From Cenococcum geophilum (lineage: Eukaryota): 64,000 nucleotides of DNA. Location: NCBI GenBank assembly GCA_050273025.1, contig CP158635.1:3472001-3536000 (forward strand). The letters run 5' to 3'. Of this stretch, positions 1-59,823 are shown one piece after another. A program made the position numbers and the translations under genes. The notes beneath the pieces are model-generated. The model saw only the letters and a list, made by a program, of their open reading frames with translations. It was not told the origin of the DNA and searched no databases. Numbering within the stretch: the first letter of the stretch is position 1; each line of letters starts with the position of its first letter.

Positions 1-2231
1 ATAGCACCTTAGCTTATAGATATAGCTAGAGCATACTTTACTATAGGCTACTACCTACGATTTAGAAGATCTATAACGACGGTTATCTTATAAAAAGAAG
101 GTAAAGCAGATTACTTAATCCTAGGAAGCTACCGCCCTATTGCCTTAGAAAACACCCTTAGTAAGATCTTAGAAAAGGTAATAGCGGACCATATAGTAGA
201 TATGGCTAAGGAACACGCCTTACTACTATAGAGCTAAATAGGGGCAAGAAAGAACCGCTTAATACTATCAGCACTTACGCTGCTTGCTGCCACTATTAAA
301 TCCGCATAGGTGATATAAAGGGACTTTATAGTATTAATGCTCAGTCTAAATATTAGTAGCGCCTACAATAATGTACCCCATAAGCGTCTCCTATATATTT
401 TTAGGGCAAAAGGCTTCCCAGAATGAATTATATAATTTATTTAAGGGTTTATAGGTTAGAAAGAAATATTACTAGTCTTTAGCGGATACTAGAGCCCCCT
501 TATTATAGTTACAACAGGAATACTATAAGGATTACCCCTCTTACCTATACTCTTTCTTTTCTTTATAAGCAACCTGTTTAACTCCTTTAAGGAAGGGGCG
601 ACCTAGGGGATAGGCTTTATTAACGATATAAACCTAATTATATATAGGCCAACAGCCGCAGAGAATTGTAGAATACTAGAGAAAGCTTATAATACCTATA
701 TAGAATGGGCAAGACGATATAGAGTCCAATTTTTACCAGAGAAATACTAGCTAATTTACTTTATAAGAAAACGCAACTAATCTATAGATCTCTAGTATAT
801 AATTTACATTTAAGGCTTTAGGGGTTAACTAGTTTAGGGCCTAAGGGTATTAGGAGTATAGGTAGATAGTAAGCTTTGGTAGAGCGTATATACGGCGTAA
901 GCGGCCTATAAGGGCTAAGTATAGTATATCGCATTATTTAGGATCGTTAATTCTATATAGGGTCCATACTTCTAGAGGTTACGCCTACTATATATAGTAG
1001 TTGTCCGGCCAACTATAATATATAGGTCCAGTATTTGGGCCATTAGAGAATCTAAGAAAGGCCCCCCTAAGTTACTCCTTAAACCACTCTAAAAGGTCTA
1101 AATAGCCTGCCTCTAGAGTATAATAGGCGTATATAAGCGAACGGCTATAGTACTACTTAAGAAGGAAGCCCCCCCTATAACTATATATTAAAGCCACTAT
1201 AATATAAAGGGCGTAAAATAAACGTAACTTTAATGTTATAAAGTATATTAAGATACGCCTAAATAAACTATAGAGAGACCTTAGGGCGCCCTATAGGAGA
1301 ATAAACTAATAACCCTAAAGTAGGGAAGATATATTAGAGAAATAAGTAAAGAAAGTAGAAGAAGAATGGTGCTGCTTTAGGGCCTAAGCCTATATAGAGG
1401 AGGAAGGGAGACGTATAAGAGGCCAGTAAAGATAATAGTAAGAGAGAAAAAGGAGCTAAAGTAGAGTATAAAAGAACGCTAGGAAACTATTTACCATAAT
1501 ATAATACTGGTTAGACCAACGCTAGAGAGGTATATAGGAGTTAAAGGTATAGAGGCTAACTAAGGTAAGAGGAACCTAAGCCGTAGCATAGTTAACGCTA
1601 TAGGGAGTAAACACTTTAGGTCTCTAAGAAGGCCTAATAAAGGCAGAAAATATAATAGTAATACTCTTAAGAATAGGAATAATAGGACTAAAAGACTGGC
1701 TCTACTGGGTGGGTATTCTAGTAGGTAGCCTAAGATATAAATATAGCTGGCTAAGACAGACACCAAAACACGTAATACTGTTATGCCCCTTACGCACTAA
1801 CTAAGAAGTAATGCTCTTAGTAGCTAGCATAGAGAACTATAATACACTACTCTTAATATAAAAAGGCCTTAAGGCGGTTACCTAGTGGCTTATTAGCTAA
1901 AATATACTAAACTAGTTCTAAGTTATAAGGGAAATAGTAATAGAGGGCGGGGGGGCGAATAACGGGCGCCCCCTAATAACTCTATAGTAGTAGAGTAAAA
2001 TATACAATACTAGCGCATCCGTAGGCTTATTACGGCAGCAATAGTCCCTAAGGAGGTTAAAAAGTAAGGTAGTAAAAGCACTATAGGTGACTCGCAGGCG
2101 CCTTATAGGCGAGTCCTAAAGGCAGGGAGATAGATTATGGGGTTTTCTTAAATAGAGTTTTCTCCCTATATATATATAAGGAGTAGTCCGCGTGGGCCTA
2201 ATAGGGATCTAAATCGGACGTTAAGTAATGA

Positions 2232-2268
<37 letters not shown>
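1..2268 (+). mobile_element. Tad1-like LINE (non-LTR retrotransposon), 3' part, RIP-inactivated
   Basis: Degenerate RT motifs SYRPIALENTLSKILEKVIA (~128), (D)ISSAY(D)NVP (~350), GI(PQ)G(S)PL(S)PILFLFF (~517) and GF(VD)D (~614), with many TAA/TAG stops. Ends in an (ATT)n tail at 2232-2268. The 5' end lies outside the window. Confidence 0.85.
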
Positions 2269-2270
<2 letters not shown>

Positions 2271-5200
2271 CTAAACTTACATTTCTTAATATTAACTTAT
2301 AAGCCCGCGTTTTATAGTTTCTTTAAGACCTTCTTAACATAAACCTAATGCTTAAGTTTATTGTCAGAGTATATAAGAATATCGTCTAGGTATACCGTAT
2401 AGAATTTATTAAAATGATTAAAAAGAACGTTATTTATATACCTTTAGTATATAGCTAGTCCGTTTATTAGTCTAAAAGGAAAAACTTTATATTTATAGGA
2501 ACTATAACGGGTATAGAACGTTGTTAAATCTTCGGATATAGGGTCTATCCTAATTTAGTAGAAAGCTTAGCGGATATTAAGTTTAGTAAAGATCTTTACC
2601 TAGCTTAGACGTATAAGGGTTTCGTTAATTAAAGAAATAGAATACCAGTCCTTTTAAGTAATAGTATTTAGCTTTTAATAGTTAATATAAAAATAAAGGC
2701 CTCTATTAGGCTTTTTTATAAATAGGATAGGGGAAGTAAAAGGGGCTTAACTTAGCTCGATAAACCCTTTATCTAGGTTATTAATTAAGTACTACTTTAT
2801 TACTTTTAGCTTATCTATTAATTAATAGTAGAGGGGGCTATAGCCCAGCAAGTTATTAGCTTTTAATTAAATTTTATAATTATATATTTGGTAAGGGGGT
2901 AACTTATTTAAGGCTGCCTTTAAAAATATATCCTTATAATTTATATAAATGGTAAAAAGGAGGCGTTTAACTAGTTCCTTATTAGTTTCCTTAGCTAGCC
3001 TTTCCTCTTTATTATTAATAATTTAGTTAATCTTATATAGGCTTGTTATAAAGACCTTATTATCCTTCTAGTATATATTAAAGTAGAATGCTATAGCGCT
3101 AATTATGGTAATATCTACGGTAGGGGGGTTACTTAATAATAGGGGCGTATGTGACTTTAGGGACTTCTAGGGTACTAGCGTTATTATTACTCCTTTTAGC
3201 TCTTATTATATCTTTTAGAGGTTATCCCTTATATCCTATTAATACGTTCTTTTCTATACTGGTTAAATCTATGCGATTTAGACGTTATTTATATTACTAT
3301 TTGTCCTGCTTCTATATATAGAGTCCTCTTTAAATATAGCACTTTAGGAGAGTATCTTTATTAGTATGGAGTTCTTTCTAGCTTTATAGTGGGCGTCTTC
3401 TTAGGTAAAGGCTAGGTTATAGGCCCAGATATCCTACTAGTAGGTAGGGTTAGCCCTTATAGCTAGTATCTTACGGTTAGTTCGGATCTCCCTAATAAAG
3501 GAGGGCAACCTTAGTCTATCCTCTAGCTAGATAAACTATCTTTATTATACATTTAACTAAATATTAAAATAGGATATCTATTTTTATTTAAGGATTATAT
3601 TATAGGACCCTAGGTCTAGGATATAAAAGGGGATATTATATTAGCGTCGTCCGTTAAAAGCGATATATAACTTTAAGATATAGGTAACGGGCTAACCAGC
3701 TTAGCCGTTATAGCCTTTTACCTAGATAGGCTTCTCTAGTTAGATAGCTTCTGCATTTAAAAACTTGGCAATATTATTTATATAGGTAGTATTTATAAAG
3801 GCGAAGCTATTTGCTCTAGTATTAATAAGGGCGGTTATATTAACTCTATATCTATTTTAAGATACTATATATAGAACTATAAAATACTTTCCACCCATTA
3901 ACTAACTAAGATTAATCTCTTTAAGATTAATAGGGTACCCTAGGGGGGAGTCTTTCCCTAGGGTTCTTCTTTTCCCGATTTATTAGACGTTTCTCCTTCC
4001 TTTATCTCCTTAATATCGCCTATATCCTTTAGCTCTAGGTAGAACGAGGTAAAGTAACCCTACTTATTATAGTTATAGCATATAGCCAAGGCAGAGTCGA
4101 CTAAAGTATTGCGGCGAATACTAGTTAATGGCGTAGTATATAACTAGTCGGGCGAGGCTTACTAGTGCGTAGTTATAACCGCCTTTAGTATAAGAGTAGT
4201 TATAACTTATCTTCCTGCTCTAGCTCTTATAGGTATAGCTAGCGAGTTCTAATTATTACGGAGTTGCTTTTGCTAATTAGGGTAAGCGTTAATCCGCTTT
4301 AGTTCTAAGTCTAATAATAGGCAATAAGCTGTAAGTTTTTTATAGGTTAGTAGGTTATCTAAGGTTACAGTAATCTTTTCTTATAGCTGGATTATTAGCT
4401 TATTATATAGGTCTAATCGGTAGTTTTTAAGGGGAACCTGGCCTTTTTCTGTAAGGTATAGGAATTAAGTCTAAAATTTAGCAAAGGGTTAGTTTAGTTT
4501 TATTATTAGGCAATTATAGTTATAACGGGTATCCCGTACTTTATTTAGGTTAATATAAATAGCCGCTAAGTGCTGTATTATCTTATTAATAGATATAAAT
4601 CGAACAGGGGAATCGTCCTTAAACTTAGCTTAAAGGTGCCGCTAGGCGTCCCCAGTAGTTTGGCTAAAGAGGTAGAGTATTTTAGCTTCTTTAGAAAAAA
4701 ATAGTTATAGTTAACGCGGAGCTTTCCTTATACTTAAATCCTTTAATTCTTAAAGGTAGGGTCTATCCTATTAGATAGTAATAGGGGGTTAAAGAGCTTA
4801 ACAGACTTTAATTACTTTATTATTATATTTAGTAAAGTAAACAGGTTAGCTAGGGCTTTAAAAAGGGGAAGCTAAGCTATTTTATAGGGCCGCGAGGCTT
4901 TCTAGGATTTCTTATAAGGTCTCTTATATATTCTTTACCTCTAAATAATTAGCTTCCTAGTTAGTTGCAAGGGCGCGGATCTGCTCGTATACGTCTATAA
5001 CGTTATTATTATCTTTAATTTCTGATCCCAATTAGATCTTAGGTTCCTCTTAGGTAAAGGCAGCTCTCTTAAATAAGCTAGCTTTAGGTGCCATTATTAG
5101 CTTCCTAGGGTTCGTTAGTATTATACGCTTTAGTTTTAATTCTAGGAGTATAGGTTTAGTCCTATCTAGTTTATAAGGTAGGATATTATCTAGGCCTTCC

Positions 5201-5537
5201 TAGGTAGTATAGAGTTATTTTTTAGTGTCTAAGTATAGCGCATTAATGCGTTATTATAGACGAAGTTTTTTTTAGGGTGGGATATTATTAAGCCCTTCCT
5301 AGGCAGGGTAAAGTAAGCTTAGTATAATATTACGGCTTATACAAATGCCTCTAAACCAAAGCTTGTAGAATGCTGTATTACGAAGATACTAAGCTAAAGA
5401 GAAGGAAAAGGGGTCGCTAGGACCGATGTAAATAAATATATAGGGTGAGTCGCTAAGGCGCTAGCTTTGGGCGGGCCAATCGCAGGTCGGCAGAATATGG
5501 CAAAATTTGGCAGGTAACGTGCGGTAGCGCCGTTACA
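2269..5537 (-). mobile_element. Ty3/Gypsy LTR retrotransposon, 5' half (LTR, gag, protease, RT), cut by the LINE; RIP-inactivated
   Basis: Minus-strand RT motif TVYLDDILIYSDN (~2365-2400), VKIFT-like and YLLFL(YPLP)-like RT segments, and a degenerate gag CCHC knuckle (~4040-4090). A TG..CA-bounded ~210 bp LTR lies at 5328-5537. Confidence 0.8.
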
Positions 5538-5539
5538 GT

Positions 5540-5845
5540 ATTCTGTCGTATTCTACTATCCTACTACTAGCTCGTTTACTAATAGCGCTTTAGCGGTATT
5601 CCTCTTCTCCTTAGCTTAGTATATTTATAAGATAGCAATCTATAAGCTTTACTTTAGAAGTATTTATACAAGCCGTTACAATATCTATAATGGCTTAAAT
5701 AAATGCCTCTAAGGTAAAGCTTAAACGAATACTATATTATAAAGACACTAAGCTTAAATAAAGAAGAAGGGGTATATATAGGAGGCAGATATATATTATA
5801 TATACGTTAAGACGCCAAGTCCTTACGCGCAACGGTGCTATATCC
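5540..5845. repeat. Two LTR relics related to the 5328-5537 LTR, arranged head-to-head
   Basis: The reverse complement of 5590-5680 and the forward strand of 5686-5770 both resemble the LTR start TGTAACGGCTT..AAATGCCTCTAA..AAAGCTT..CTAAGCT..AGAAG. Confidence 0.6.
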
Positions 5846-5849
5846 CTTT

Positions 5850-7005
5850 TATAATTAGGTATAATTAAGTAATTACTATAAACCTTACCCTTACTTAAAA
5901 AGATCTTTCTTAAGCGTTTAATACTATCTTATGTTAGCCTAAATGTCTTTTAGATAAGCCTATTATTTAGGTATTTATTAATTATAGCCTATTTAATTAA
6001 TTAATTGGCTATTTTAAATATATATACCATAAGATCTTTAATAGGGGATTAAATAATTTAAGGCAAAGTAGGGTCTAATTGCTATAGAAGAGCGCTTTTT
6101 TAACTGCTAGTATATCTTATATATATTGGGTTAGAGTATTAGGCTTCTAGCGTTAAGCGCCTAGGTATTACGTAATTAAGGATTAGAAATGGAGTAGATA
6201 TTCTAACTAGTGGGCCTAATATTAGCTTAGCTATTTTAGGGTTATAAAGTATTATAGGATTCTTATAATTACTAAGGACATTAATTAAAAATCTAATACC
6301 TTCTAGCTCTAGTTACTCTTATATAAAATAATAGCCAATAATTTTTTATTATAGATTTTATAATTATATTTAGCTAAGCTTAGTTGTTTTAAGAAGTATA
6401 CTTTAGATTATCCTATACCCATTAGGGTACCACGTTATTAATAAAGGTATAGACCGTATATATAATACGAAGGAACTTTACTTAATCTATACCTTTTAAT
6501 TGCCTAATTCTTATCGATAATATAGGACGATAATTAACTATTAATAGGAAAATTATTATTCTTTATTATATTAAAATAGAATGGTTCTAATAATATAATT
6601 AGATAGGTTAGCTTCTATAATACTTATCTAGTTTAAATTAAAGCGTTAGAGTATAGATATAGTAGTAAATATAACCTTTAGACAAATAAAGGCCTTACCC
6701 TTTTAGGTCAAAACTATTAAGGATAAAACTAAGACGGAGAAATTGGTAAATCTTAGAAAAGCCTTTATATCCTTAACGTTCTTAAGTTTTTACTAGTTTG
6801 TAATTACTTTAACTTTTATTAAATGTATTTATAAGCTATTTATAGAAATAATAAGTCTAAGATATAGAATTTCCACTTAGTAGAACTTGTAATTATCTAT
6901 ATCTTACTATATACTAGCTTCGCTTAGAGCTTATAAAATAAGTTTAACGTATTTTTAGTATTTAAATATATTATTGCTATATAAAAGGATATTATTAGTA
7001 TAAGC
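5850..7005 (-). mobile_element. Gypsy pol fragment (RT C-terminus/RNase H), heavily RIPed
   Basis: Minus-strand AYT(DD)ILLYS (~6980-7005), KNVKDIKAFL(G)FTNF, K(E)LLAII and LEYL..F-like RNase H motifs. Confidence 0.65.
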
Positions 7006-7009
7006 AGCA

Positions 7010-7304
7010 TCCCTTAAACCGTTAGGGTACTATATTATTGATAAAGATATAGCCTATATCTATAATACCAAAAGAACCATACTTAAAGTTCTATTTATCT
7101 ATAACTGTACCTTTAACAATGTCTAGTTGCTAAAAGCCTTATATTAATTGACTTAACACCAAGGATTGAACCTAGGTAGAGCTTTTGCTAAGAAATAGTC
7201 AAATATTAATAGCTTTATATTTCTAATCACGGCTAAGAATCTATGCGTCGTAATTGGCTAAATACTTATCGATAACGTAGGACGAAAAATTAACGGTTTA
7301 AGGG
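7010..7304. mobile_element. Small TIR element (MITE-like) of a dispersed TTATCGATAA-containing family
   Basis: Terminal inverted repeat CCCTTAAACCGTTA / TAACGGTTTAAGGG. Related sequence occurs at ~6420-6545 and 15105-15250. Confidence 0.5.
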
Positions 7305-7648
7305 ATAGAAGACGTCAAGTAGGGGCGTAGGGTATTATTTATATAGTATTAGAATAAGCTTAGGGCGTTTACGAAGCCAAATAGCATTACTAAGTAGTTA
7401 AATAATCCGTACTAGGCATGAAATATAGTGAACTATTTATCTCCTTATATAGTATGGAGGCGGTTAAATATAAAGATAATATTAAGCTTTATATAGAAGT
7501 GAGCCTTACTTAATTAGTTTAATATCTCTTATATTAATAGGATTAAGTACTAGTTCTTAATAGTAATAGCGTTAAGAGCTCGGTAGTCTACATAAAAGCG
7601 TAAACTACTGCTAGGTTTCTTGATAAAGATTACTACTAGGCAATGTGA

Positions 7649-8896
7649 CTAAGCTTCAACTGTGGACAGGCTATCTACAACTACAAAACTGTTATTGCCT
7701 CCACAAGCCACACTTCTGACTCGCTTCATGCTCAGTTCCTGTACCTCGGCCAAGTTTGCTAGAAATTGTAGTTTCTGACCAAGCCCAAGCTGCCCAATCT
7801 CACCTTGCCCGGCACAGAACAGTGCCCTTTTCAAGACCTTTTCTAAATTATTCACTTCAGCAGCAACGACCAAATGGCCTGATCCAATGCCGAAATCGTA
7901 TACGCATGCTCGCAAGTTATCGATGGTAACACAGACTTCCTTCACAAATTCATCTTCTTCATCTTCGTTGTCGGTCTCTTCACGAACTGTTCTCAATGCG
8001 GCAATCTCTCCATTCGAACTAGGGTTACCCTGGCCCCAGATGAACAATTCGCCTTCATTGCTCAATGCGCCACTCATCCAACTTCCGGAAGCTATTTTTT
8101 CCACGCGTGTTTCAGAAAGATAAGGAATTTGCGTGGGAATTGAAGCAGAGGATAGGTCTGCAATTGGCCTTCCAAGACAACGAACATAACGAGAGTCTCC
8201 CCAGGTGTAGATGCAGCCGGTGCTTGTGAGGAGACCAAAGCTTGTGGCGCCGCTAACGAGCTGTGAGGAAAGTCCAGGAATGACATAGAAGCTATGCCGA
8301 ATTCCTGAAGAAGAGGTAGGTGGTAGCGGATCAGCCTTACCAGATGTATCGAAGAAAGGATGGCTCTTATACCATGTTCTGAATTCTTCTACAGTGCCGA
8401 ATTGGAGAATGTATGTTCGAGGCGGAGTTCCTTCAGACTTCTCACAGAATGTTACCGCAACACGAGAATTTCCAGCGATGGAAATGTGGGTGAGCTTGAT
8501 TGGGTCAAGGTTCATGCCAAAGCGCTGGAATGCTTTTGAAGATGTGGTGCTAGACGTGTGATCAATCATTGAACGCTTGAAAGGGTGCGTATCAAGGAAG
8601 AAAAGCTGTCCGGTTCCGGAAATGCAACCTTGAACGCCTTCATGTGCACCGAAGAAGGATGCCGGGATCACATCAGGACAAGACGTCTCCGACAATCCGA
8701 TTGTGGAAGACAGGCAGCTTGAAGCGCCGCCCAAGAGTCGATAGCTTTTATTCAGGAGAACAAGGGTTTCGGACCAGGAAACAAACAAAATCTGGGCGTT
8801 GTCAGCCGAAGCTATTCTCAGAGGACTGAGTATATCTTCCTCGGTGTGCTGAGCCAACTGCCGAAATGCGTTGAAACCCCAGGCGTAGATGTCCAT
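7649..8896 (-). CDS. RCC1/BLIP-II beta-propeller family protein
   Basis: Open ORF with RCC1-repeat motifs YAWGFNAFRQL, IYTWGD..CLGR, KIASGSWMSGALSNEGELFIWG, GQGEIGQLGLG and VACGGNNSFVV. Start placed at MDIYAWG (8896); the frame stays open to 9319. Confidence 0.85.
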   Translation of the reverse strand: MDIYAWGFNAFRQLAQHTEEDILSPLRIASADNAQILFVSWSETLVLLNKSYRLLGGASSCLSSTIGLSETSCPDVIPASFFGAHEGVQGCISGTGQLFFLDTHPFKRSMIDHTSSTTSSKAFQRFGMNLDPIKLTHISIAGNSRVAVTFCEKSEGTPPRTYILQFGTVEEFRTWYKSHPFFDTSGKADPLPPTSSSGIRHSFYVIPGLSSQLVSGATSFGLLTSTGCIYTWGDSRYVRCLGRPIADLSSASIPTQIPYLSETRVEKIASGSWMSGALSNEGELFIWGQGNPSSNGEIAALRTVREETDNEDEEDEFVKEVCVTIDNLRACVYDFGIGSGHLVVAAEVNNLEKVLKRALFCAGQGEIGQLGLGQKLQFLANLAEVQELSMKRVRSVACGGNNSFVVVDSLSTVEA

Positions 8897-15667: not shown

Positions 15668-18664
15668 ATGCCACAGAGCCTTATTGACGAGTTTACGGAC
15701 CAAAGGCAAGCTGGTCAGCCATTTGGGAAAGCCTTAAAAAATGCCACCTTCCAAGCAAAACCAGCCGTCCTTGACTTAGAGTCTGGAGAGGGCCAGGAAA
15801 AGAAAAAGTTCAGGTTATGGAAGGTTCGTATGAGGGACAAAGATGATAATGAACCTGTGTGAGTGCGAGCTCTATTTCCTTCTCTAACAAGCTGTACCTT
15901 AAACGATCACCCCAAAAAGGGAATCTAGATTGCTGCTTTCAATCACGTATGCGTGTGATAATAAATTTCTCCTTAGACCATGCACACAGCATAAGCCCCA
16001 ATCACCAATATCGAGCATTGAGGCACCCAGTGGAGTAACCTACTGACTTTGATATTCATAGTGATTGGTGGTTTGCGTCGACGGGGATACCGTTTGTCAA
16101 CCAACCTCCTTGGATCTTGCAAAAGCTTACTCAATCAGAATCTTGGCAGCCACACTAGGACCTATGGCCAATGTTTTGTCAATTGGAGCTCTTGTCACAT
16201 ATTGGAGGGTCGATCTCAGAGACCCAACAGACGCAAGCACGCTTCTCCCGCTGTTACAGGGGCTGCTAATACCTGACCCGCGCTGGTAAGAGCCGGCTAA
16301 TATTCCTCTTCGCCTTTGGTGCAGATCTGCTTTATTAATTCTGCAAAGACATTCCCGCGATCATATCCAGTATCCCGTTCAAATTAATGCTAATCACAGT
16401 AGGTGCTACTTGATGAATATGGTGTCTCTCATTCTAGGCTTCATCGGTAATTTCCTTCTTCTGCTAAACTTCACGAATCGTATTCGATATATAATATCAC
16501 TGCCAATGACAATTCTTCTATGGTTCGTCGCTTGTGGACTTGTAAGTTACCAACCTACTTAAATAGCGGAATGACTAGTGCCGCTGTCTCTCGAATTCAG
16601 TCGTCTCAAATTCCTTTGATTAGCACCAAACTCTGCTGACTTCATATTTAGCTCGTCGGAGATCTAGTGGGAATGCACACACGCACGCCACCAATATCTA
16701 CATACGAGGCTTATTCGGGAGGATTTTGGTATGGCATAGCGGCGGCTTCTGTCTATTTGCTACTCTCCATACTGTTAATGGTTAATTTAATCGGCTACAT
16801 CCGAGGCCATTATCCGCAGCACTTTGACCTGACCGAGGATCAACGAACACTAATCGTCCAGACGATTCTCTTTTTCATTTGGCTTGCTGGTGGCGCTGGT
16901 GTCTACGCACGCCTTGAAGGATGGCATTTTATAGATGCAGTATGTCTCCCTTATCTTTGAAATTCATATAGTCTATTGACATATTCTTAGTTATACTACT
17001 GTGATGTGACCATATTGACAGTGGGATTTGGAGACCTTTACCCTACGGAGAATGTGGGACGTGCACTAATAATCCCATTCTCCTTAGGTGGCATCATAAT
17101 GCTGGGTCTCGTCGTTTCAAGTATCTACAAGTCAGCCCAGGAGCTTGGGGAGAAGAAAATAACTAGAGGCCACTTGGAGCATGAGCATGAGCGAGCAATG
17201 GGACGGACCGTGGCAACAAGTCTTGAGCTCCAACGTCGCGAGGTTGAAGCTGAGATGGCACTAGAGCGGGTGATGGCAAAGCAGGCCGCCCGTCCAAGTT
17301 CACGATCACCAGCCACAGCTCTCCAATATCAATATACCCTGGATCGCTCTATGGACAGCCGACGTGGAAGTATAGCAAGTAGTGCTCAAGCGAGCTTCCC
17401 AAGATCTGGCCTATCTCGGCAGAGCACGTTGAGAGACAGGGTCAAGAAAAGTTCCAGGATACAGTTACTTCGTGACGAGAAGGAACGCTTCGAGGCAATG
17501 AGGAAACTCCAAAAGAAGTCACAAATTTGGAAGAACTGGTGCCGGCTAAGCCTGACTCTAACCATATTCGCCATTTTCTGGTGTGTCGGCGCCGTGGCCT
17601 TTTGGCAAGCTGAAAAATCCACGACGAACATGACCTACTGGCAAACCGTTTATTTCTGTTGGGTTGCTCTTCTTTCTATCGGCTACGGTGACTTCGCGCC
17701 CAAGTCTGGCGCTGGACGGTGTTTCTTTGTAATTTGGTCTCTCATAGCCGTGCCCACTATCACGATTCTGGCCAGCGACCTCACAGCCACAATTGTCTCA
17801 GCCTTCAATCATTGGTCTACTAGGCTTGCAGATTTTACAATCCTCCCGCAGTACGGCGTCTGGAGCAACCTTGTGCAGAAACATCCCTGGCTATCTTTGG
17901 GCCTTGAGAAATGGAAAGCCAATTGGCAGACTAAGCATATAGACCCCAAAAATCGCGTGGAGACATTAGAAGGCATCGTAATTGCAAAGGAAAAAGGATC
18001 TGACGGCGGTGGATCGATACCAGATAGTTCAAAGGATGGGTCCAAGGACGTGCAGAATGTTACTAGTTCATTCAGCCCTGATATTGCCGGCCTTACAGCC
18101 CAGAATGAAAATGACGTCGAGGCAAGACAACCCGATGCGGCTACCTTAGCACGACAGCTTGCTCTCGCAATTCGCCGCACGGCGCACGACCTAAGCATGG
18201 ACAAACCGCGCCAGTATAAGTTTGAAGAGTGGGTCGAATTCACACGGCTAATTCGTTTCTCTGCTGTAAGTGGTGTAGCGGAGGCACTGAGGGAGGAAGA
18301 AGAAGAGGGGTTGGTGGAGTGGGATTGGATTGGAGAGGACTCACCTATGATGGCTCAGCAGAGTGAGAGTGAATTTTTACTTGATCGTTTAGTCGAGTCT
18401 CTGGTGAGATATTTGAGGAGGAATCCGCCAGTTGATGCATTTGCAGGGAGTGTGAAAGAGCGTGGTGAAGAGGCACTGAGGCTGAGGACAGCAGGGGCGG
18501 ATGAGGTCTCTGGGGGGAGGAGTATTATGAGTGCGCTAAGCAGACAAGAGAGTTTTGGAGGGAAAAGCAGGAAAGGGAGTGTTTCTGGCGTAGGACCTTC
18601 AAATGAGGATGGTGGGAAGGCCCCATTGCATCCAGTTCAGGAAGATCATGAATGTCATTTCTAG
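15668..18664 (+). CDS. TOK1: TOK-family two-pore-domain potassium channel (multi-exon)
   Basis: Two pore loops, TILTVGFGDLYP and LLSIGYGDFAP. Spliced N-terminal TM exons include DWWFASTGIP/ILAATLGPMANVLSI, FWYGIAAA and QRTLIVQT. About five GT-AG introns. The symbol is family-level. Confidence 0.9.
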
Positions 18665-18834: not shown

Positions 18835-19240
18835 TTTTTGGACTGGAGCCAATAAAGTGGATCTAGGTGATTTAATTGGTGGATGGAGTGGATCTAAGGT
18901 GGTGGAACTCTTAGAGCTCCAAACCCTATACCTAATTAGGAGGGAGGAAAGGACATTATATTATTAGTGCGTAGGATTAGCTAATTGGGGGTTTGCGTAA
19001 TAGCCTAGTGTTTTTAATAACTGGTACTAGCCACTAAATCTAAAACTTCTAGTTATACCTTAGCCCTTACCGCTACTATTGTCCTTGCCGTTGCCCTTTT
19101 TACCTCCCTCCCTTAGTATTACTACTTATCCTTTTAGTATTGTTCCTTACTAACTAATATAGAACGATTCTTCCCTATCCGCACACCTGCCTTAAATAAT
19201 ATCCTTATTACTCCTAAAGAAATTAACTTAAACGGATAAA
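18835..19240. mobile_element. Relic end of the same hAT-like family as 9752-10717
   Basis: TTGGACTGG..GTGGAT..TGGAGTGGATCT..AGAGCTCCAAA..TATACC resembles 9763-9893. Confidence 0.45.
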
Positions 19241-19370
19241 TCTTAGAATATAATTAGAGTTAATTTATTAGGTAACCTACTCTACTAGTTATGTTTATAT
19301 TATTAACTTCTTATTTACCTATATACCTAGCCTATTAATAGGTCTACTGTAGTATTTCCTACAAGGCTTC

Positions 19371-22300
19371 TATTACGGACGCTTTAAGTACAATATTACG
19401 ACTACTTAGGGAAGAGTTAGAAGAAGCTAGTTAGTTAATATAAGCACGGTCTAGAATGGAGCCAATAGAACTATATAACAAGGAATGGTAACTAAGGTCA
19501 CGTGACGTAATTTGTATAATCTGTAAAATCTATATAATCTGTAATAGAGTAGATAGAGTATACGTATATTATGTATAAGAAGGATTTTATAGGAGTACGG
19601 TTGTGTATTTAAGGACCCTTAATCCCTACCTAGATAGTTCCTTCCTTATAGTAATTCTTAGAATATAATTAGAGTTAATCTATTAGGCAACTACTCCACC
19701 AGTTATTATTATATTGTTGACTTTTATACTTGCATTTCCTACACACCTAGCCTAATAACGAGCCTATTGTAGTTCCTACTACAAGGTTCCGTTATATAAT
19801 CACTACCTAGTTATAGTATTAATATAAAAAGTCGAATAATATGCCACCAAAAGCACTAGCCATAACGCTATTAACGGCGGCAACTACTTTAAGGTTAGGT
19901 AACGACACTTATATAGCAGACACTAACTTACAGCAACCTGTAACGGTTAGATAATTATAAGAGATAGTTAACTAACTAATAGAAAATAATATAATATTGG
20001 AAAATAGGATTAACGGGATAGGCGTAGTAAAGGTTAAGTTACTATTAATTAAAAGATACTTAGAAGAGAGATTAAAGCTTAAAGGATTCCTTACGTAAAT
20101 GCACTTTAAGGTTATATAAGAGGGAGCTAAGCTAGCAACACCTATAGATTAAATAGCGTACGCAGGATTGTTCCTAATAGAAAGGGCACTTAAATAGTTT
20201 AAGCCTTACCTTACGGAAATCTAGGTAAACGGAATGATAACTATAAACTAAGAGGTACGGTTTATATTTTTAAGCTAGAATAGATTTATAGAATAACTTA
20301 TACAAATATTCGGAGACCCGGAGGCAGTAACCACAGTAAAAAAAAAAATCTAAAATATTACGCAACGAACCTTAGTAATTAAGTATATAATATAGTTCTA
20401 AACGTTAGTAATATAAGTAGAGTGGAATAATAGGGTGCTTATAGTACAGTATAAGTAAGGACTTAAGGCTAAAGTCTAGGACGCGATTATTTTAATAGAA
20501 GATGCAGACACTCTATAGGAACTAATAGATTAAGTAATTAAGATTAATAATTGGATCTACTAAAGGGAACAGGCTAAGAGAGGCTAGGATAGAGTTCTAT
20601 AGTTATATAAGGCGTAGAGCACGCAATAACTAAAGCTAAGTTAAAAACTATAGTATAGCGCAGAGCTAATAGACCTAAGCAGTACTAAAGAAGCCTATAA
20701 AAGATAAAGTAAGCGACTATAGAAACCCAAAGGATAAGGATTAAGTAATTAAAGGTCTAAGGAGTAAAGGCCAAATTAGGGATTTTAGTAGTAGAAGACA
20801 TTCAGGCAGACTCTATAGTAAGAAAGATGGTTTAAAGAAGGAGCTTATATAAATTATAGGAAATAAGGTTATTTCGCAAGGGATTATAAAGATAGTTAGA
20901 GATACTATGTAATAAAGAGAACTAAACTAATAGTAGACAATATATACGTATAGAGGGATAATAATATACTACGAGGAACAAAAGAGTATTTAATTAAAAG
21001 TTTTGTGTTTTACTATAATAACGTATACCAAATTTATAAGGACGCTAAGTATAGCGCAAGCTATTAGCTATAAGAGCTATATTTAGCGGAATATAAAGGA
21101 ACTAATAAACCAGTTCGCAGATCGGATATTAAGGACGATAACTTTAATATAGGCGAAATATTTTATAACAATAAGGCAACGGAAGCCGCTTACTAGGAGC
21201 GAGTAGACCTTAGAGATGTTATACTAGAGGTAGAGGATAATTCTACTATAGAATAGGGAACATTAGTAGAGATTAAGACCCCACTAGATATAATGTCTAT
21301 TACTTCGTAAGATATAAGAGAAGTAGGATAGCAAACCACTTTAGCACTTAATAAAGGCAAAAGGCTAAAGGCTTAAGATTCTTAAGATAAGATAAGAGAT
21401 AACTAAGATTTTTAAGATAAAATAAGGCAAGCTTAAGAACCTATAATAGACGATAACTAATAGAGTAGAGCAGTAGCTTAGTTTAATAATATAAGAATAA
21501 GCTTAGGACAGAGTTTCCTATAGGCACAAGATAAGTAAGACAAGATAAGTAAGATTTAAGATTCTTAAGAAGAGATAAGAACACTAAGTAAGCCTAGTTA
21601 AACTAAGGCGGGAGTAAAGCTTAAGTTAGAAGTAAGCTTAGGATTAAAGAATCTAAGGGACTAAAAATTCGGAGTATAAATTAGGGCACCTATAGGTAAG
21701 AGGTAAGGAGCTTCTTTATAGATTAGAGAATTTATAGTATAAATAGTAACTAGACTAGGAGACAGACATATAGACCTAGAGGACTTACTAGGAAAATATA
21801 GTGTTTAGCCTAAAGATTAAAGAGTTAATATTAAGATTAAGAAGTAAGAAGACTTTAAGGATCTATCTATAAGACGTAAATTAAAAGAAACTATAGAGGA
21901 ATTTAAGTAAAGAATTATTGTATAGCAAGAGCAGAAACTAGATAAGAGATCTAGCATATTAGGACGTATAAGGGATAGAGCGCTAGTGCGAAGAATCACT
22001 AATAGGCCTAGAGTAGGCATATTAAGAGCTAAGTGGCTTATTAAACTGGAATAAGAAGAGGATCTAGGGATTTTAACTAGGTTTAAGGAATAATATATAA
22101 AGGGCTATTATAATATAGTAATAAAAAGATACTTCCTTACGGATAAGCCGTATACACTCTAGCAGCTATACTAAAAGTAGTATAGATAAAGGCATAACGA
22201 TAAGTAGGAAGATTTCTATATATAGTTAGATGAAAAAGTTATTTAGGACCACCCGATTATAAAGAAGGCTATAACTTATATTAAAGGAGCCTTAATTATA

Positions 22301-25300
22301 ATGTTAAAGGATCTAGAGAAATAATTAGAGGACTAGAGAAGTAAGAGGCGTATCTTAGTACCTGCGAATAAAGTTATAACGTTTAGATTAATATAAAAAA
22401 GGTTTAAACTTAAGGATAAAGATAAACTAAGAGTTAACCTAAAGCACTTAGCACACTATACGCTATTATAAATTGTATGCGTGGACGACATATATAACAT
22501 ATATAAGAATCTAAAGAAAAAGAATCGAAAATACCCTATAAGGATGTATTAGATAATAGATAAGTAATAATATAGGAATGCTAAGTATATACATAGCTGG
22601 TATCTAGTAGAAGTTTAGGAGTTAGAAGACTTAATACTTTAACTAGAAAGATTCCTTACGGAAGAATGCTTAGACGGATAATAGTAGTGGGAATGCCTAG
22701 AGAACACGTGTCTATAGCATATTAAAGATAAAAAACGAATTAAGTATTGGCTAAAGAGTGAGCTAAGTGTATAGGAATTAAGTAGCTAATAGTTAGGAAA
22801 AGTAGAGGCCTATAGGACTAGAGGGAGTCAGTAATAGAGCCTTAGACCCTTAAAGGAATTTAAGGACAACACCTAAATTTATAGGTTAAATAGTAAGATT
22901 AGCAGTTTGAAGCGCTAGTAAATAGTAAAGTAACGCGGAACTATATCTTACTGTAGTTAAGAGAATAGGGCTACCTTATAGATAGAAGGAACAACTTTAC
23001 CTATTAGTTACTATTTTAGAAGATCTAATAGCCTACGGAGGAAGTATTATTAATCTTAAAATAGGACCTATTTAGTTAACTATTAAAGGGAGATAAATTA
23101 AGATATCTTTTAATATATTACCGTTGGGAAATAATAAGGCAGTACTAGGAATGCCTTAGTTACAGAAATATAATCTAAAGATTGATTAGATTATAGGTCA
23201 GGTTAATATTAGAGATACTTAATGCTATAAAATACGATAATAAGCTAAGTTAGTATAGTACTAAGTCGGGGCGATATATAAAGAGACTGAGCGAGGCTTA
23301 AGTTACGTACTAAAGAGATACTATAAGTATAGTAAGAAACTATAGTTACTGGAAAGTAAAAGGCTATTAGATTATATAGCATAGGACTATAAAATAAAGT
23401 TAGAACTAGGAATAAGTTTAAAGTTCTTTCTAATTTATAAGCTTACTAAAGAAGAAGGTAGAGCGTTAAAAGAGTTTATCTAGGAAAACTTACAAAAGGG
23501 ATATATTAGACTATTACAGTTATTAGTAGGTTATCTAGTACTATTCGTACTAAAGAAGAATGGCAAACTAAGGCTGTATATCGACTATAGATAGTTAAAC
23601 AGTATTACTAGAAAGGATAGGTATCCTTTACCCTTAATTAGCGAAATCTAAGACAGGATAGGTAACGCGTAAATCTTTAAGAAGATAGATCTAAGATGGG
23701 CGTACTATTAGATTAGGATTAAGGAAGGCAATAAATAGAAGGCAGCCTTTAGGTTAAAGAAAGGACTATATAAGCTATTAGTTATATAATTTAGGCTTAT
23801 AAACGCACTAGTAACGTTCTAAAAGCGTATTAATAATATATTAAGAGAATACTTAGATGAATTTATTATAGTATATCTTAACAATATTATTATCTACTTA
23901 ATAACTAAGGAAGAATATAGAGAATATATTAAATAGGTCTTAAGGAGACTATAGGAAGAATAGATACTAGTAGTAATTAAAAAATGCGAGTTCTTTACTA
24001 GGAAGACCGATTTCGTTAAATTTATTATTAAACTAGGCTAACTTAGCATAAATCTAAAGAAGATTAAGGCTATAGTAAATTAGCAAAAACTAGAGAATAT
24101 TACGCAGTTAAGATTATTTCTAGGGTTTTATAATTACTGTAGACGGTTTATAATATAGTAGTTAAAGGATATTAAGCCACTTACGCAGTTAACGAAGAAA
24201 GAAAAACTATGGGTATAGGGAGAGAAATAGCAAGAACTCTTTAAGAAAGTTAAAGAGTTGTTTACCTAAGAGCTAGTTCTTAAGATCTATTAACTAGGAC
24301 TAAAGACGGTTATAAAGATAGATGTATTAGACTATATACTAGGGGCGTACTTTATATAGAAATACTAAGATAGATGGCACCTAGTGGTATATTATAGTCG
24401 GAAGATAACACTACTAGAGTTAAACTATAACATTTACAACAAAGAGTTGTTAGGTATAGTTATAGTATTAAAGAAATAGAGAGCATTCTTATAAGGCATA
24501 GAGAAACTATTTATAGTTAAGATGGACTATAAGAACCTAATAGGATTCCTAATAATAAAGGAACTTAATTAAAGATAGGTTAAATGGGTAGAGATACTTA
24601 TAGAATACCATTTTAAGATTTAGTATACTAAAGGTATAAATAACACGCGAGCAGACGCTCTAAGTTAAAAAGCTAAACTATAAAATAATAAGAAGCCATT
24701 AGGGGCTTTACTATAAAAAGATATAGACGGATTAATTAGGTATAATCATCCGAAGATTATAGTAACTTAAGAAAATAACGGGTTAAATAGAGTTTATAAT
24801 ATACTAGGAAGCTTTTAGGTATAAAGAATTCTAGAAATATAGCTAGAAGATCTATAAACGGATATATACGAGAATTAAGAAGTAAAGTATATCCTAAGAA
24901 GTATAGCAGAGTAATTTATAGAAGAATTCTATAAGGGATTAACTTAAGGACATAATAAAGCCATGGGCTTAGTATTAAGACTCTAAGAGGAGTATATTAT
25001 TAATAGAATCTAGGGCTTAGCGCGAAAAGTTATAAGAGAATGTTTAGGTTGCTAAAGGAATAAACTAATAAGGCATAAGCCGTATAGAGGGCTATAACCT
25101 ATTAAAATACTAGAGAGACTATAGGAGGTTATATTATAGGACTTTATTATTAAGTTGCTAAAGTTAAGAGACCCTATTACCGGATAAGATTATAATATAA
25201 TTTTAGTAATAGTAGATAAGCTTATAAAGTGGGGATACTTTATAGTATGCACAGAGGAAATATTAGCAGAAGATGTCGCTAGAATCTATATTAAGGAAGT

Positions 25301-27344
25301 ATTTATAAGATATAGAGCACTAAGCAAGATTATATTGGATAGAGATTTAAGATTTATAGAGTATTTTAGGAGGTATTCTTAGTGGAATAAGGAGTTAGAG
25401 TAGCAACTTCTACCGTATATTATCCGTAGACAGACAGTTAAATAAAAAGACTAAATTAGATACTAGAGCAGTATCTAAGATATTATATTAATTACGTATA
25501 GAATAATTAGGTATCGCTATTACTAATTATATAGTTTATATATAATGTAACGCCATAGGAAGGTATAGGTATATTACTATTTAAGGCGAATTACGGATAT
25601 AAGCTAAAAACATTATTATTACTATAGTAAGTAAAGAAAATAAGTAGTATAGCTAAAGAGAGAATAAAGATATTAATAAATCTTTATATAAACCTTATAA
25701 AATTAGTAAAGAAAGTATAAGAGAGAATAAAAAAGTACTATAATGTTAAGAGATTTAAGGGACTAGATCTTAAGGAGGGAGATAAAGTATAGCTACTATA
25801 TAAAATTTTAAGAGTTAATAACTAAGTAAGAAGTTAAACTACGTTAGACTAGGACCTTTTAAAATTATATAAAGGATTTTACCGGTTACGTTTAAGTTAA
25901 ACCTACTAGCTAAAATAAAGATCTACCTTATATAGTATATTATAATGCTAGAGCTAGTGTACGGAAATGTTAAGCTATTAGTTTATAAAGTAGACACGTA
26001 TAAAGGATAGGAAGAAGATAAATAGTAAGTTTTAAAGATCGTTAATTATAAGGATATTAATAATAAAATATAGTATAAGGTTAAGTGGATAGGCTATACT
26101 AAGACTACCTAAGAACCACTAAAAAATTTAAAGAACGCTATAGGAAAGGTATAGGAGTATTAAAAGAAATTAGGTTAGGTAGTATTAATAAAGAAGAATC
26201 GCTAAAGAATAAGTTACCTAAGGGGGACCTAAGAAGAGTAGTTACTAAACTACTTAGATCTATTTCCTTCTTTATTAGAAGAGAATCCGTTCTTTTATTA
26301 TTAAGTTTCTATAGACCCTATTCTATAAGCTTCTACTCCTTAAAATAGACCTTTTTATAAACCTTCTTAAGATGGATTAACTAAGTAGACGCCGCAAGAC
26401 GAGACTTAAGGGCCCGTTACTAAGTATTAGCAGCCTTCTATTCTGCGTTATAGGAATAGCGTAACTCCGCCAGAGTAATAGATAGTTTATTATTTAGCCG
26501 CGTAGTAATAGATTAAATATAAAACCCTAAGATAAATTAATTAGGGAACTAGATAACTATTAAGAGTAATAGGTTACGTATATTTAGTATTAGAGATAGA
26601 GTAAACATTATAGGACAAATAAATATTCGCTTTAGTGCACTCTAAATAAGAGGATAGTTATTATAAAGATGGGTTTACTAATATAATATAAACTAACCCC
26701 TTTTTTAAACAGCGAGAATATAGGGACGGTATAATCTTACTAAGAGATAATATTGCAGCAATAGTGCGAGTGCGACAAGCAGTTAAGGAAGAAGAAATTG
26801 CTTTAGGTATAATAAGTAACAATATTAACTAAATTAATTAGACGGACATTATACCTCTAGTAAATAACTTAGAGATATTAGGGATCTTTAAGAACGAAGA
26901 TAAAGAGAAGGGAGATAGTGTTACGGACGCTTTAAGTATAATATTATAACTACTTAGGGAAGAGTTAAAAGAAGCTAGTTGGTTAATATAAGCACGGTCT
27001 AGAATAGAGCCAATAGAACTATATAACGAGGAATAGTAACTAAGGTTACGTGACGTAATCTATATAATCTATAAGATCTATATAATCTATAATAGAGTAG
27101 ATAGAGTATACGCATATTATATATAAGAAGGATTTTATAGGAGTACGGTCGTGTATTTAAGGACCCTTAATCCCTACCTAGATAGTTCCTTTCTTATAGT
27201 GATTCTTAAAATACAATTGGAGTTAATCTATTAGGCAACTACTCCACCAGTTATTATTACGTTGTTGACTTTTGTACTTGCATTTCCTATACACCTAGCC
27301 CAATAACGAGCCTATCGTAGTTCCTGCTACAAGGTTCCATTACA
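19371..27344 (+). mobile_element. Full-length chromoviral Ty3/Gypsy LTR retrotransposon, RIP-inactivated
   Basis: 426-bp LTRs at 19371-19796 and 26919-27344, 5-bp TSD GCTTC on both sides, and a PPT before the 3' LTR. Contains gag (ATG ~19840, CCHC ~20845-20890), protease (~22900-23190), RT (RLYIDYR, YPLP, VYL(DD)IIIY), RNase H, integrase and a chromodomain (YKVKWIGY ~26075). Confidence 0.95.
26140..26849 (-). pseudogene. Antisense two-exon accessory ORF inside the Gypsy element; Zn2Cys6-like cluster plus coiled-coil after reversing RIP
   Basis: ATG at 26849. YSRC-x6-Y-x13-YLEC-x8-Y, where each motif Tyr is TAT (RIP product of TGT). A 55-nt intron at 26527-26581 precedes a helical, charged second exon. 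Confidence 0.6.
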
Positions 27345-27749
27345 GCTTCGTTATACTAGGTTTACTAAGGAATAGCTTAAAAGACATTGTTAGGTAGTAG
27401 TAGTACTTACTAAGAAATAAATTAATATTAGAAAAGTAGCTAAAAAGAAGGCTACTAATATAAGGAAGCTAACTAAGGAATACTAGCTAGAGGAAAGGTA
27501 GGAAAGGTAGTAGGTAAATGTCGATCGGTAGTCCGTGCACCGATAAGTAAGTAAAGAATGAGGACTCTGTCTATTCAAACTATAAAGAAAAGAAACTATT
27601 TATACATGAGGTAGGTGTCGGAAATAGGAAAGGGTGGGGGGGTATGTAACTAAAATGGGGGTAGTAGTACAACCGGGATAGGAACAAGGATAGGGTAATA
27701 GGCTAAATCCAACCTGAATCGACAGTAAAGTGTAAAAGAACTCCCTTAC

Positions 27750-53752: not shown

Positions 53753-54010
53753 TTGGGGGAAGGAGCAAGGGGGTGGGGGGTTGTTTCTGGGAGTTTGGAT
53801 GGGGGAGAGAGGTGGATGGACTGGTTTTGCTGGTTTGGATAAGAGAAGGAGAATGGTATGGTATTATCTGTCGATGCCGGATATTTTGCTCGCTGTGTGC
53901 GGCTGGGCGACTGGTAGGACGGGCTAATATGGTGGAGTTGACCTAATTGGCGGTCAACAATATCTCTCGGTCTCATTAATTGATACCACGAGACTCAAAC
54001 CGTACAGATT

Positions 54011-54300
54011 CATTTCCTTGACCTCAAGTCTATATCAAAAGCCGCCTTCTCAAGTAAGTGATATGTTCACAGATCCTCCCGCTTCAACCTTCCCGCTTCC
54101 GTTTCAGCTGGAATGAGGTCGAATTCCCAGATCACACGAGCAAGTATAAGACGTATCTCAGTCTGAGCAAACTCTTCCTCCATGCACTCTCTGCGTCCAA
54201 GAGAAAAGAGCTGTGAAGCATTAAGAACATCATTGTAGAAGAAATATCTCTATTAACTTCTATTGGGTTTCTAGCCACCTATGAATTTATAGAAATGAAA
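54011..54300 (-). pseudogene. Cytochrome P450 C-terminal fragment
   Basis: NDVLNASQLFSLGRRECMEEEFAQTEIRLILARVIWEFDL (heme-Cys motif) with an in-frame stop; the upstream part is lost in the RIPed block. Confidence 0.75.
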
Positions 54301-55160
54301 TAGTAGATAAACTAACAAAAAAGGGCCTTTTTAGAAGAAAAATGCGGTCTTTTTATACTTCTCTAGCCTACCTAGGGAGACAAGCAAGAGAAAAGATACT
54401 AGAATAGTGGAAAACAATTAGCAACAGAATAAAAGTAAAGAAAAACACTATACTAGAATTTGTAAGGGAAACTACCCCTTTTCTTTTAAAGCTCCATCGG
54501 ATAAATATCCTAAAAAGCTATCCCATGCGCCGTTGAGGCGTACGCCAAAAGAGGCCCGTGCGCGAACATCAAACACCAAAGCGACCCCCAAGGACCCAAT
54601 TCGGCTGTGCTTTATGCAATATACCCTTCTGTAAAGAAGGACTTTGTTGGCAGGAACGCCTTAGCCTAATTAGGACACGATAGAGTCAATTATATATCAA
54701 GTTCGGGCTCTATTATAATGATTTAAAGCCTTAATTCGTTGGTGAATCTACGGCTTCATTTCGCCAAGACTCGATTCAATCTAGAGGCTCTGGTTGGTTC
54801 GCTTGTGTGTACGCCTTTGTCAACAGCGCATGGGATAGTCAGCTTTCTTTTAACTAAAACTAAAAAAAGGGTTCTTTAAATCCTTTTCTAAAACAATAGG
54901 AAATAATAAAGAAGGTAGATGCTTTAGGGACTATAGCGTAGTATAAACCCCTACGTATCTTTTACTAGAATATAGACTATATTAGGAAGATAGAAAAGAA
55001 ATGCAAAGACAAATAGGCTCTTCTCTCTTCTTAGAGAAGCTTTTTTGCACAAAGAAAGGAAGAGAGGCGCTTCTTCTATTTCTAAGTAGGACTAAAATAG
55101 CTACTAGAAAGTGGCTAATAGTAGAAGAATCTCTAAAAGGAGGTAACTCCTACTAGATTT
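54300..55160 (+). mobile_element. Probable LINE ORF2 3' relic, RIPed
   Basis: Degenerate TP..L..E..Y knuckle region and LL.FLSRTKIATRKW, typical of Tad-like C-termini. Confidence 0.35.
54521..54835. mobile_element. 315-bp MITE
   Basis: TIR TCCCATGCGCCGTTGA / TCAACAGCGCATGGGA, with TA on both sides. Confidence 0.75.
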
Positions 55161-55539
55161 CTAGTAAATAGACTATAGAAAATAAAAGGATAGAAATTAA
55201 TTATAAATAGGACAGGGATAGGCGTTAGGATTACTTATGATTTTATTTTAATTTTTCAATTTTTCTACTATTTTTCTACCGTTTTCTTACTACCTAATAG
55301 TTGTTAGCAACCTAGTATTTTACTAGGAGGCTATAAACCCCTAGTTTAGGGATTTATAAACTACTAGGATATAGCTACTAGTATATATTAAGCTGCCTAG
55401 AAAGGATTTATATATATAAAACTATAGCGCTATAGCCTAGAGGCTGTATACGTAGTATAATACAATGGATATAAAAAATAAATAAAAACTATAGCTACTA
55501 TATAAAAAGTCTCTATAATTGCCTACGCTCCAATTCTTT

Positions 55540-59520: not shown

Positions 59521-59823
59521 AATTTAATATTTAATATTTTATATATATTTTATTAATATTAGTAAGTATAGGGGGCAGGGCGGCGTTATAAAAAAATTTA
59601 CTAGTATCTTAAATTAGGTTTATGCTAATTAAGTAATTTCGGTATTTAGCCGCATTTAGTTGCATTTTGCGGCTATATACTATACTGCTAATAATAATGC
59701 TGTAATTTGCGGCTAAACGCCGCCTTAATAATAAAAGTGCTGTAAGCTGCAGCTTAATGCTCTTTTAGAAATAATAATACTAGAAATATTTTGGTTAACT
59801 GGGTTAACTGAGTTTACTATATA

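Follow-up and report, generated by a model that had tools for sequence, protein, structure and literature searches.

We describe what appears to be the remnant of a spliced antisense gene carried by a Ty3/Gypsy retrotransposon of the chromovirus type in a stretch of 64,000 nucleotides (nt) of Cenococcum geophilum DNA (assembly GCA_050273025.1, contig CP158635.1, positions 3,472,001 to 3,536,000 of the forward strand). This whole stretch is called the window hereafter, and all coordinates are counted from its first letter. The element lies on the plus strand, and a spacer of ~0.7 kb separates the end of its pol gene (near 26232) from the start of its 3′ long terminal repeat (LTR; 26919). In our judgement, this spacer is very probably the dead relic of a real minus-strand gene, and this interpretation, together with the mechanism proposed below, provides the best explanation of the observations. 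The evidence that carries it comes from the codon positions at which copies of the element share transversions, and from an intact natural protein whose start, splice junction and end all correspond to the relic.

The element family is highly repeated, with 55,698 pieces in run X1, and the stretch is also present in public runs from two organisms and from root and soil metagenomes. Its copies bear the signature of repeat-induced point mutation (RIP): run X1 shows 329 kinds of difference, 313 of which are transitions, and the RIP indices are 1.68 for TpA/ApT and 0.28 for (CpA+TpG)/(ApC+GpT), at a G+C fraction (GC) of 0.31. Copies were collected from metagenome contigs by means of a RIP-tolerant pattern of 45 letters taken from the spacer, which gave 122 loci, whereas the same pattern returned 0 matches against viral_contigs. 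The spacer is spanned by 118 of the 122 loci at 77-89.5% identity, and these, together with the copy in the window, form the 119 rows of the alignment used below. Nearly all of the 118 copies derive from one metagenome and are probably copies within one genome, and all of them have been RIPed (GC 0.24-0.36). They are divided by a 21-nt indel into 76 long and 43 short forms, and the shared indels in the spacer have sizes of 21, 12 and 3 nt.

Transversions are not produced by RIP, and those that are shared among copies therefore date from the diversification of the family. The spacer holds 60 sites with shared transversions, of which 54 lie in the two intervals tested. In the interval 26540-26840, 15 of 20 shared transversions occupy the third position of the minus-strand frame assigned to exon 1 (binomial p 1.7e-4), and in the interval 26260-26512, 23 of 34 occupy the third position of the exon 2 frame, which is one base off that of exon 1 (binomial p 4.5e-5). 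The paired plus-strand frames have the same third positions, and the coding strand was judged by synonymy. In the exon 1 interval, every one of the 15 changes at third positions is silent when read on the minus strand, as compared with 9 of 15 on the plus strand. In the exon 2 interval the corresponding numbers are 21 of 23, the other two being exchanges of D and E, and 19 of 23. Changes at other codon positions are conservative when read on the minus strand (L/I, S/A, R/R) and radical when read on the plus strand (R/L, R/P, S/I). The pol gene, used as a positive control, gave a weaker signal, with 14 of 24 changes at third positions after correction for the two single-nucleotide deletions that the window copy carries. 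On these sequence grounds, purifying selection evidently acted on the antisense gene during diversification of the family. The length of the open reading frames (ORFs) recovered by reversing RIP ('de-RIPing') was dropped as a form of evidence, given that all six frames are then open to ~100 codons. The case shows that a gene which no single copy allows to be read can be recovered by de-RIPing many copies and noting the codon positions at which transversions are shared.

Relatives of the encoded protein were sought with a profile of 66 translations of natural copies, which matched 590 ORFs, 120 of them listed. The matches listed come from JGI or ENA assemblies, with no name and no NCBI or UniProt source among them. 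In an all-against-profile search at E≤1e-3, the relatives form 253 clusters at 50% identity. Most are RIPed readings, and some are far less damaged. One natural protein, P0269, is intact at 152 amino acids and carries all six Cys residues as C-x2-C-x6-C-x13-C-x2-C-x8-C. Its N-terminus (MPPK..) lies at the equivalent of position 26810, it reads ..SDAE-W-SRVQ.. across the exon junction, and its C-terminus (..KEWKLVE) is the exact stop point of the frame in the window. When positions 26581-26527 are removed from the de-RIPed consensus of the 119 rows, the resulting product is identical to P0269 at 101 of 144 residues along the entire protein, whereas the copy in the window is identical at 58 of 144 and contains 8 stops. 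Intact relatives of ~150 residues consist of a short basic N-terminus, the six-Cys module and a helix of ~60 residues.

These comparisons uphold much of the structure that an original prediction had drawn from the window sequence alone. The third-position and synonymy signal and P0269 support a gene of two exons, antisense to the element, in the spacer that extends from the chromodomain end of pol to the 3′ LTR. The predicted 55-nt intron and the Trp codon that its removal creates are both matched by P0269. The second exon, expected to be helical, is modelled by AlphaFold in the relative P0172 as a single long helix of 63 residues (47-109) with predicted local distance difference test (pLDDT) values of 93-98. 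The start had been placed at 26849 and must be moved, since the conserved Met corresponds to 26810 as judged from P0269; the codon at 26849 is ATG in 10 of 114 copies, and the stop that follows it is present as TAA or TAG in 113 of 114.

An alternative intron of 57 nt (GTATGC..CTAAT..TTAG), with G at 26583 in 11 of 119 copies, keeps the frame and ends the protein early; it was rejected in view of the junction Trp of P0269. No convincing canonical GT..AG intron that joins both frames was found in the subfamily consensus. A search for a longer protein yielded only ORFs that are extended upstream through the LTR side. In several diverged clusters these extensions read through the same stretch antisense to the purine-rich tract (PPT), recognisable as ..LKI..ISK..IRGV.., and the gene therefore appears to hold one conserved position next to the LTR. 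The coordinates of the gene and of the element that carries it are collected in Table 1.

Table 1. Features of the retrotransposon and of the antisense gene relic, in window coordinates
Feature	Position	Strand	Basis or remark
Target-site duplication GCTTC	19366..19370; second copy 27345-27349	.	Read directly
5′ LTR	19371..19796	+	blastn pair and ends read; TA..TA, RIPed from TG..CA
gag-pol of Ty3/Gypsy chromovirus, RIP-degraded	19797..26232	+	Pfam matches, stops read as X
Stop codon of antisense gene	26318..26320	-	TAG in 60/119 rows, TAA in 56/119
Exon 2 relic, helical tail	26321..26526	-	Six in-frame stops in window; aligned to P0269
21-nt segment (indel)	26413..26433	-	Absent in 43/119 copies; in-frame TAG at 26422-26420
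Intron relic, 55 nt	26527..26581	-	CTAAT and TTAG; donor AT here; fits junction Trp of P0269
Exon 1 relic	26582..26810	-	Start ATA here; basic stretch, then six-Cys module
Six-Cys module C-x2-C-x6-C-x13-C-x2-C-x8-C	26610..26720	-	Window, copies and related ORFs
PPT	26890..26918	+	Adjoins 3′ LTR; read directly
3′ LTR	26919..27344	+	blastn pair and ends read; TG..CA
Putative antisense promoter	26919..27344 (3′ LTR)	-	Likely place, inferred

Four codons of the six-Cys module are TAT (Tyr) in the window, which had been interpreted as Cys codons altered by RIP, and the copies agree with this interpretation: the middle base of a Cys codon occurs at these four positions in 26/116, 4/116, 15/117 and 22/117 copies. 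At the two codons that specify Cys in the window, the Cys base is retained in 53/116 and 80/117 copies. The rarest of the six (Cys3) is kept in four copies that belong to both subfamilies, within DNA that is locally less mutated, and the most Cys residues in any one natural copy of the set is four of six. Among 120 related ORFs, the six columns are occupied exclusively by C or Y (120/120 in each of four columns, 119/120 and 115/116 in the others), the C/Y share of other columns averaging 5%. The same Cys spacing is found in a relative that is 59% identical to the de-RIPed consensus. The database ORF P0267 (129 amino acids) exhibits a different arrangement, wherein the module stops after the first Cys triad and is followed by a helical tail resembling exon 2; this form may reflect either alternative splicing or a deletion.

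A number of observations weigh against the gene as described, and they concern the window copy, the sampled subfamily and the RNA data. In the window, the minus-strand strings quoted in the original prediction are present letter for letter in both frames. The frame from 26849 reads MSV, a stop, and further on PSLYSRCLKKGLVYIILVNPSL, two stops and LSSYLECTKANIYLSYNVYSISNTKYT before another stop, and the frame one base on reads ..RLNNKLSITLAELR..ALKSRLAAS..KLIE and a stop. This copy has two of the six true Cys residues (Y-C-Y-Y-C-Y) and two stops within the motif, and only three codons are read from the ATG at 26849 before a stop. The pattern [CY]x2[CY]x6[CY]x5-13[CY]x2[CY]x6-8[CY] has three occurrences when the AT-rich DNA of the window, 24.5 kb in total, is read in all six frames, and the motif is therefore at chance level when judged on the window alone. 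In a search of the six frames of the window copy against Pfam, no family was matched at E≤10. Its lesions include the change of the start from ATG to ATA, four Cys codons changed to Tyr, the donor changed from GT to AT, and 8 in-frame stops, and we consider this copy to be dead and to have no role for the host.

The sampled subfamily looks defective as a whole. The donor base at 26581 is A in 119/119 rows, and the codon at 26515-26513, four codons into exon 2 and encoding Gln in P0269, is a stop in 119/119 (TAA in 117, TAG in 2). Each subfamily also carries a fixed in-frame TAG, which is located inside the 21-nt segment in the long form and elsewhere in the short form. A restored GT donor had been predicted, and the outcome is divided. 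The junction codon in 228 database ORFs is Cys in 41 (T followed by GT, donor intact), Tyr in 177 (T followed by AT) and Trp in 1, such that the donor is restored in relatives and absent from the subfamily. The acceptor AG is kept in 93/119 rows, and the start codon at 26810 is ATG in 9 and ATA in 107 of the 116 rows that have this codon. Either the founder of the subfamily already had a broken gene, and the elements therefore multiplied without an intact one, or the shared lesions mark the most RIP-prone sites, at which RIP is saturated. Among polymorphic transition columns, 8% keep C/G in ≤5% of copies.

Expression data were available from one raw-read RNA run, of which ~12% was read, giving 51 reads on 1.9 kb. 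Depth in this run is zero over 26268-26651, and no joint between 26581 and 26527 is present among the 15 of 44 joints listed. In addition, P0269 is known from its ORF alone; it may be a spliced transcript or an intron-less copy, and it presumably belongs to an element. Both P0269 and P0172 are contiguous ORFs that lack the intron, which fits spliced RNA, and either RNA or DNA may be their source. About 11 of the RNA reads (run X21) lie at 26076-26267, all with the first mate on the plus strand, at least 9 mismatches and no resemblance to the sequence after 26248. These reads come from a diverged, expressed relative, and, provided that the library was stranded in the usual way, they would represent RNA antisense to pol.

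The gene is a new instance of a kind of antisense gene known since 2011. According to excerpts of PMC8365987, PMC7264820, PMC4227169 and PMC5987419, which refer to Zhao 2011, the Boty-like Gypsy elements found in Botrytis cinerea and in Sclerotinia have an extra antisense gene, brtn, and this is the closest known case. The statement in the original prediction that no functional description of such a gene was known overlooks this gene of the Boty-like chromoviruses (PMC8365987 and PMC7264820, on Zhao 2011). Among the 15 of 156 papers listed in a literature search, none connects an antisense gene of a retrotransposon to a zinc cluster. The gene model at 26810-26318 of the minus strand is, like brtn, antisense to gag-pol and located between pol and the 3′ LTR, and its host is likewise a Ty3/Gypsy element, with RVT_1, RT_RNaseH and SH3_Tf2-1 matches and a chromodomain-like motif recognised by eye. 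The two genes are likened by position and orientation only. Plant LTR retrotransposons also carry antisense ORFs between pol and the 3′ LTR, as in Grande1, RIRE2, Retand and PvRetro13, and these are conserved within families according to excerpts of PMC7264820. Their position and orientation are those of the gene in the window, their hosts are plants, and the likeness is one of description only. Retand belongs to a non-chromovirus lineage (PMC11963269, in the portion consulted). As summarised in parts of PMC7264820, plants have for years been known to harbour LTR retrotransposons with extra antisense genes, as has Botrytis since 2011, with function established for none. To the fungal antisense genes, the present analysis adds a precise gene model, an intact protein (P0269) and a hypothesis that involves zinc binding, dimer formation and LTR binding.

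According to this hypothesis, a transcript would start in or near the 3′ LTR in the antisense orientation and would then be spliced. An intron in the antisense orientation is not removed from the sense genomic RNA by splicing and can therefore persist through retrotransposition. In the resulting protein, the Cys module may bind zinc, and its helix may pair with that of a second subunit to form a dimer. The small protein would then bind nucleic acid, most likely the LTR DNA of its own element, and might thereby tune transcription or copy number of the element. Our best guess regarding function, modelled on these features, is thus a small zinc-binding, dimeric, LTR-directed regulator. A far-reaching version of this idea, which we currently regard as rather unlikely, is that a widespread fungal chromovirus lineage produces, from an antisense transcript that begins at the 3′ LTR and is spliced, a mini GAL4-like zinc-cluster dimer that binds the LTR of the element and sets transcription or copy number of the element. 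A parallel exists in human T-cell leukaemia virus type 1 (HTLV-1), whose HBZ gene is transcribed in antisense from the 3′ LTR, is spliced and encodes a dimerising basic leucine zipper (bZIP) factor. The likeness, which is one on paper only, is that both retroelements would have a spliced gene in antisense orientation at their 3′ end, with a small, helical, pairing product resembling a transcription factor. There is no sequence relation between the two, one has a bZIP domain and the other a Cys module, and one belongs to an animal retrovirus and the other to a fungal retrotransposon. If the far-reaching version were true, the mini GAL4-like dimer would be the fungal counterpart of the HTLV-1 antisense bZIP factor, and it would also be the first retroelement-borne member of a class of transcription factors thought to belong to host genomes.

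The resemblance of the six-Cys module to GAL4-type zinc clusters should be treated as a lead suggested by its sequence. Excerpts of PMC4025492 give the canonical zinc-cluster motif as CysX2CysX6CysX5-12CysX2CysX6-8Cys and describe a coiled coil, C-terminal to the finger, that serves for dimerisation in many zinc-cluster proteins. Five of the spacings in the module fit this motif, and the linker of 13 residues exceeds the range of 5-12 by one. As in GAL4 and PPR1, the arrangement C-x2-C-x6-C ... C-x2-C-x8-C is followed by a long helix, which in this case is predicted. In contrast to those proteins, members of the family have ~150 residues with nothing past the helix, they are borne by a retrotransposon, and they have the linker of 13. 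The nearest ESM Atlas cluster is annotated as 'Zn(2)-C6 fungal-type domain-containing protein' (score 0.90), the best match of the family to a PDB sequence is PPR1 (1pyi_A, E 0.56), and Pfam Zn_clus (PF00172) is matched whenever the first three Cys are intact, at 13.5-14.2 bits, with 14.2 the best of all members. These three weak leads all rest on one short stretch.

Several results count against the zinc-cluster assignment. P0269 scores 13.6 bits (E 0.075) against Zn_clus, for which the gathering cut-off is 21, and the match joins residues 32-51 of the protein to positions 18-36 of the 39 in the profile. The first Cys triad is thereby aligned to the second half of the domain, and the PPR1 match, over ..PSC.RCAK....CV.., again concerns the second half. 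The natural members P0217 and P0175, which have all six Cys, yield no match to Zn_clus. AlphaFold assigns the Cys part pLDDT values of 39-57 with two alignments. Pairs of CGG in the de-RIPed LTR number 3, 1, 3 and 0, as compared with 2.3, 2.2, 2.9 and 1.6 in shuffles, and thus exhibit no excess. Of the originally proposed GAL4-type cluster, therefore, the six Cys at GAL4-like spacing stand, and the match to the domain does not, given the linker of 13 and the half-domain alignment at 13.6 rather than 21 bits.

These findings give weight to an explanation in which the gene is real and its Cys module adopts some other zinc-binding or disulfide fold that is not a DNA binder of the GAL4 type. Such a protein would act through protein or RNA contacts, for example in particle assembly, integration targeting or host silencing. 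We consider this quite possible, if somewhat short of probable. It would account for a Zn_clus match that covers half of the domain and never attains the cut-off, for the lack of such a match in P0217 and P0175, and for the linker that departs from the canonical range (PMC4025492, as excerpted). Profile searches of PDB sequences with alignments A1 and A4 gave 0 matches, and the best ESM Atlas score for the Cys part alone is 0.85, for a 'hypothetical protein', with no match named as a zinc cluster; these outcomes and the lack of CGG excess point in the same direction. On the other side, Zn_clus is the only recurrent family match, PPR1 is the best PDB match, and the Cys module has a helix on its C-terminal side, a feature shared by many proteins of the zinc-cluster class (PMC4025492, in part).

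A second possibility is that the element captured a fragment of a host zinc-cluster transcription factor gene and has carried it with no role of its own. The faint resemblance to PPR1 and to the second half of Zn_clus would be expected from such an origin, and the gene was broken in the subfamily sampled while this subfamily multiplied. We regard this as improbable, since purifying selection continued during diversification of the element, the Cys spacing is the same in the relative that is 59% identical to the de-RIPed consensus, and diverged clusters share the read-through of the antisense PPT and hence one position next to the LTR.

It is also conceivable, and in our view very unlikely, that the constraint arises from the plus strand, either from a sense ORF3 or from an extension of pol that shares the same third positions. 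Periodicity alone is blind to strand because these positions coincide, the de-RIPed plus frames are open too, and in the exon 2 interval as many as 19 of 23 changes are synonymous on the plus strand. Against this proposal stand the exon 1 interval, where synonymy is 9 of 15 on the plus strand against 15 of 15 on the minus strand, and the conservative nature of the non-third changes on the minus strand as opposed to their radical nature on the plus strand. Moreover, the pol frame meets stops before the spacer that no copy repairs, and the database ORFs and P0269 are minus-strand readings. Least credible of all is a chance pattern in a non-coding, RIP-degraded spacer with no gene, which would suit the threefold occurrence of the Cys-or-Tyr pattern in 24.5 kb, the ~100-codon frames that open in all six phases after de-RIPing and the lack of a Pfam match for the window copy, and which is contradicted by the synonymy signal, the C/Y columns, the intact P0269 and the 253 clusters.

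The minus-strand gene relic, which remains our preferred interpretation of the spacer, resides in a complete, RIP-mutated Ty3/Gypsy chromovirus on the plus strand. The element corresponds to an AT-rich block at 19-27.5 kb of the window (GC 0.27-0.32, as compared with 0.45-0.5 in the flanks). Its LTRs were recovered by blastn as a pair, 19373-19794 and 26921-27342, with 92.9% identity over 422 nt, and blastn within the 64-kb window revealed no further copy besides this pair. Pfam matches on the plus-strand frames, with stops read as X, include RVT_1 (6e-14), RT_RNaseH (1.1e-17) and RT_RNaseH_2 (2e-16), and the integrase domain SH3_Tf2-1 scores 20.9 bits, which is under its cut-off. A chromodomain-like sequence, KVKWIGYTKTT-stop-EP, was spotted by eye at about 26020-26150 (+) and has no Pfam score.

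In the integrase region, one base is missing at each of two places, ~25360 and ~25862, relative to 56 of 56 other aligned copies, and pol changes frame twice in the window because of these two 1-nt deletions. Directly to the left of the 5′ LTR, at 19237-19366, is an incomplete LTR that belongs to the same family at 77% identity. The end of this older LTR copy was apparently the insertion site of the element, whose right flank begins at 27345, with GCTTC as the target-site duplication. The de-RIPed LTR contains a tandem 9-mer, two units of CGGTCTGCG, at 27056-27075 in the 3′ LTR and at the same place in the 5′ LTR, which appears in the window as TA-rich repeats.

Elsewhere in the window, other AT-rich blocks that look RIPed (1-8000, 54000-61000 and 63000-64000) show no blastn likeness to the element, and one of them contains another chance occurrence of the Cys-or-Tyr pattern at 55490-55585 (+). 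Just to the left of the element, an open frame of 557 codons at 16991-18664 (+) carries pore-like motifs (TVGFGD and IGYGD, noted by eye), and looks like a host gene for a two-pore potassium channel.

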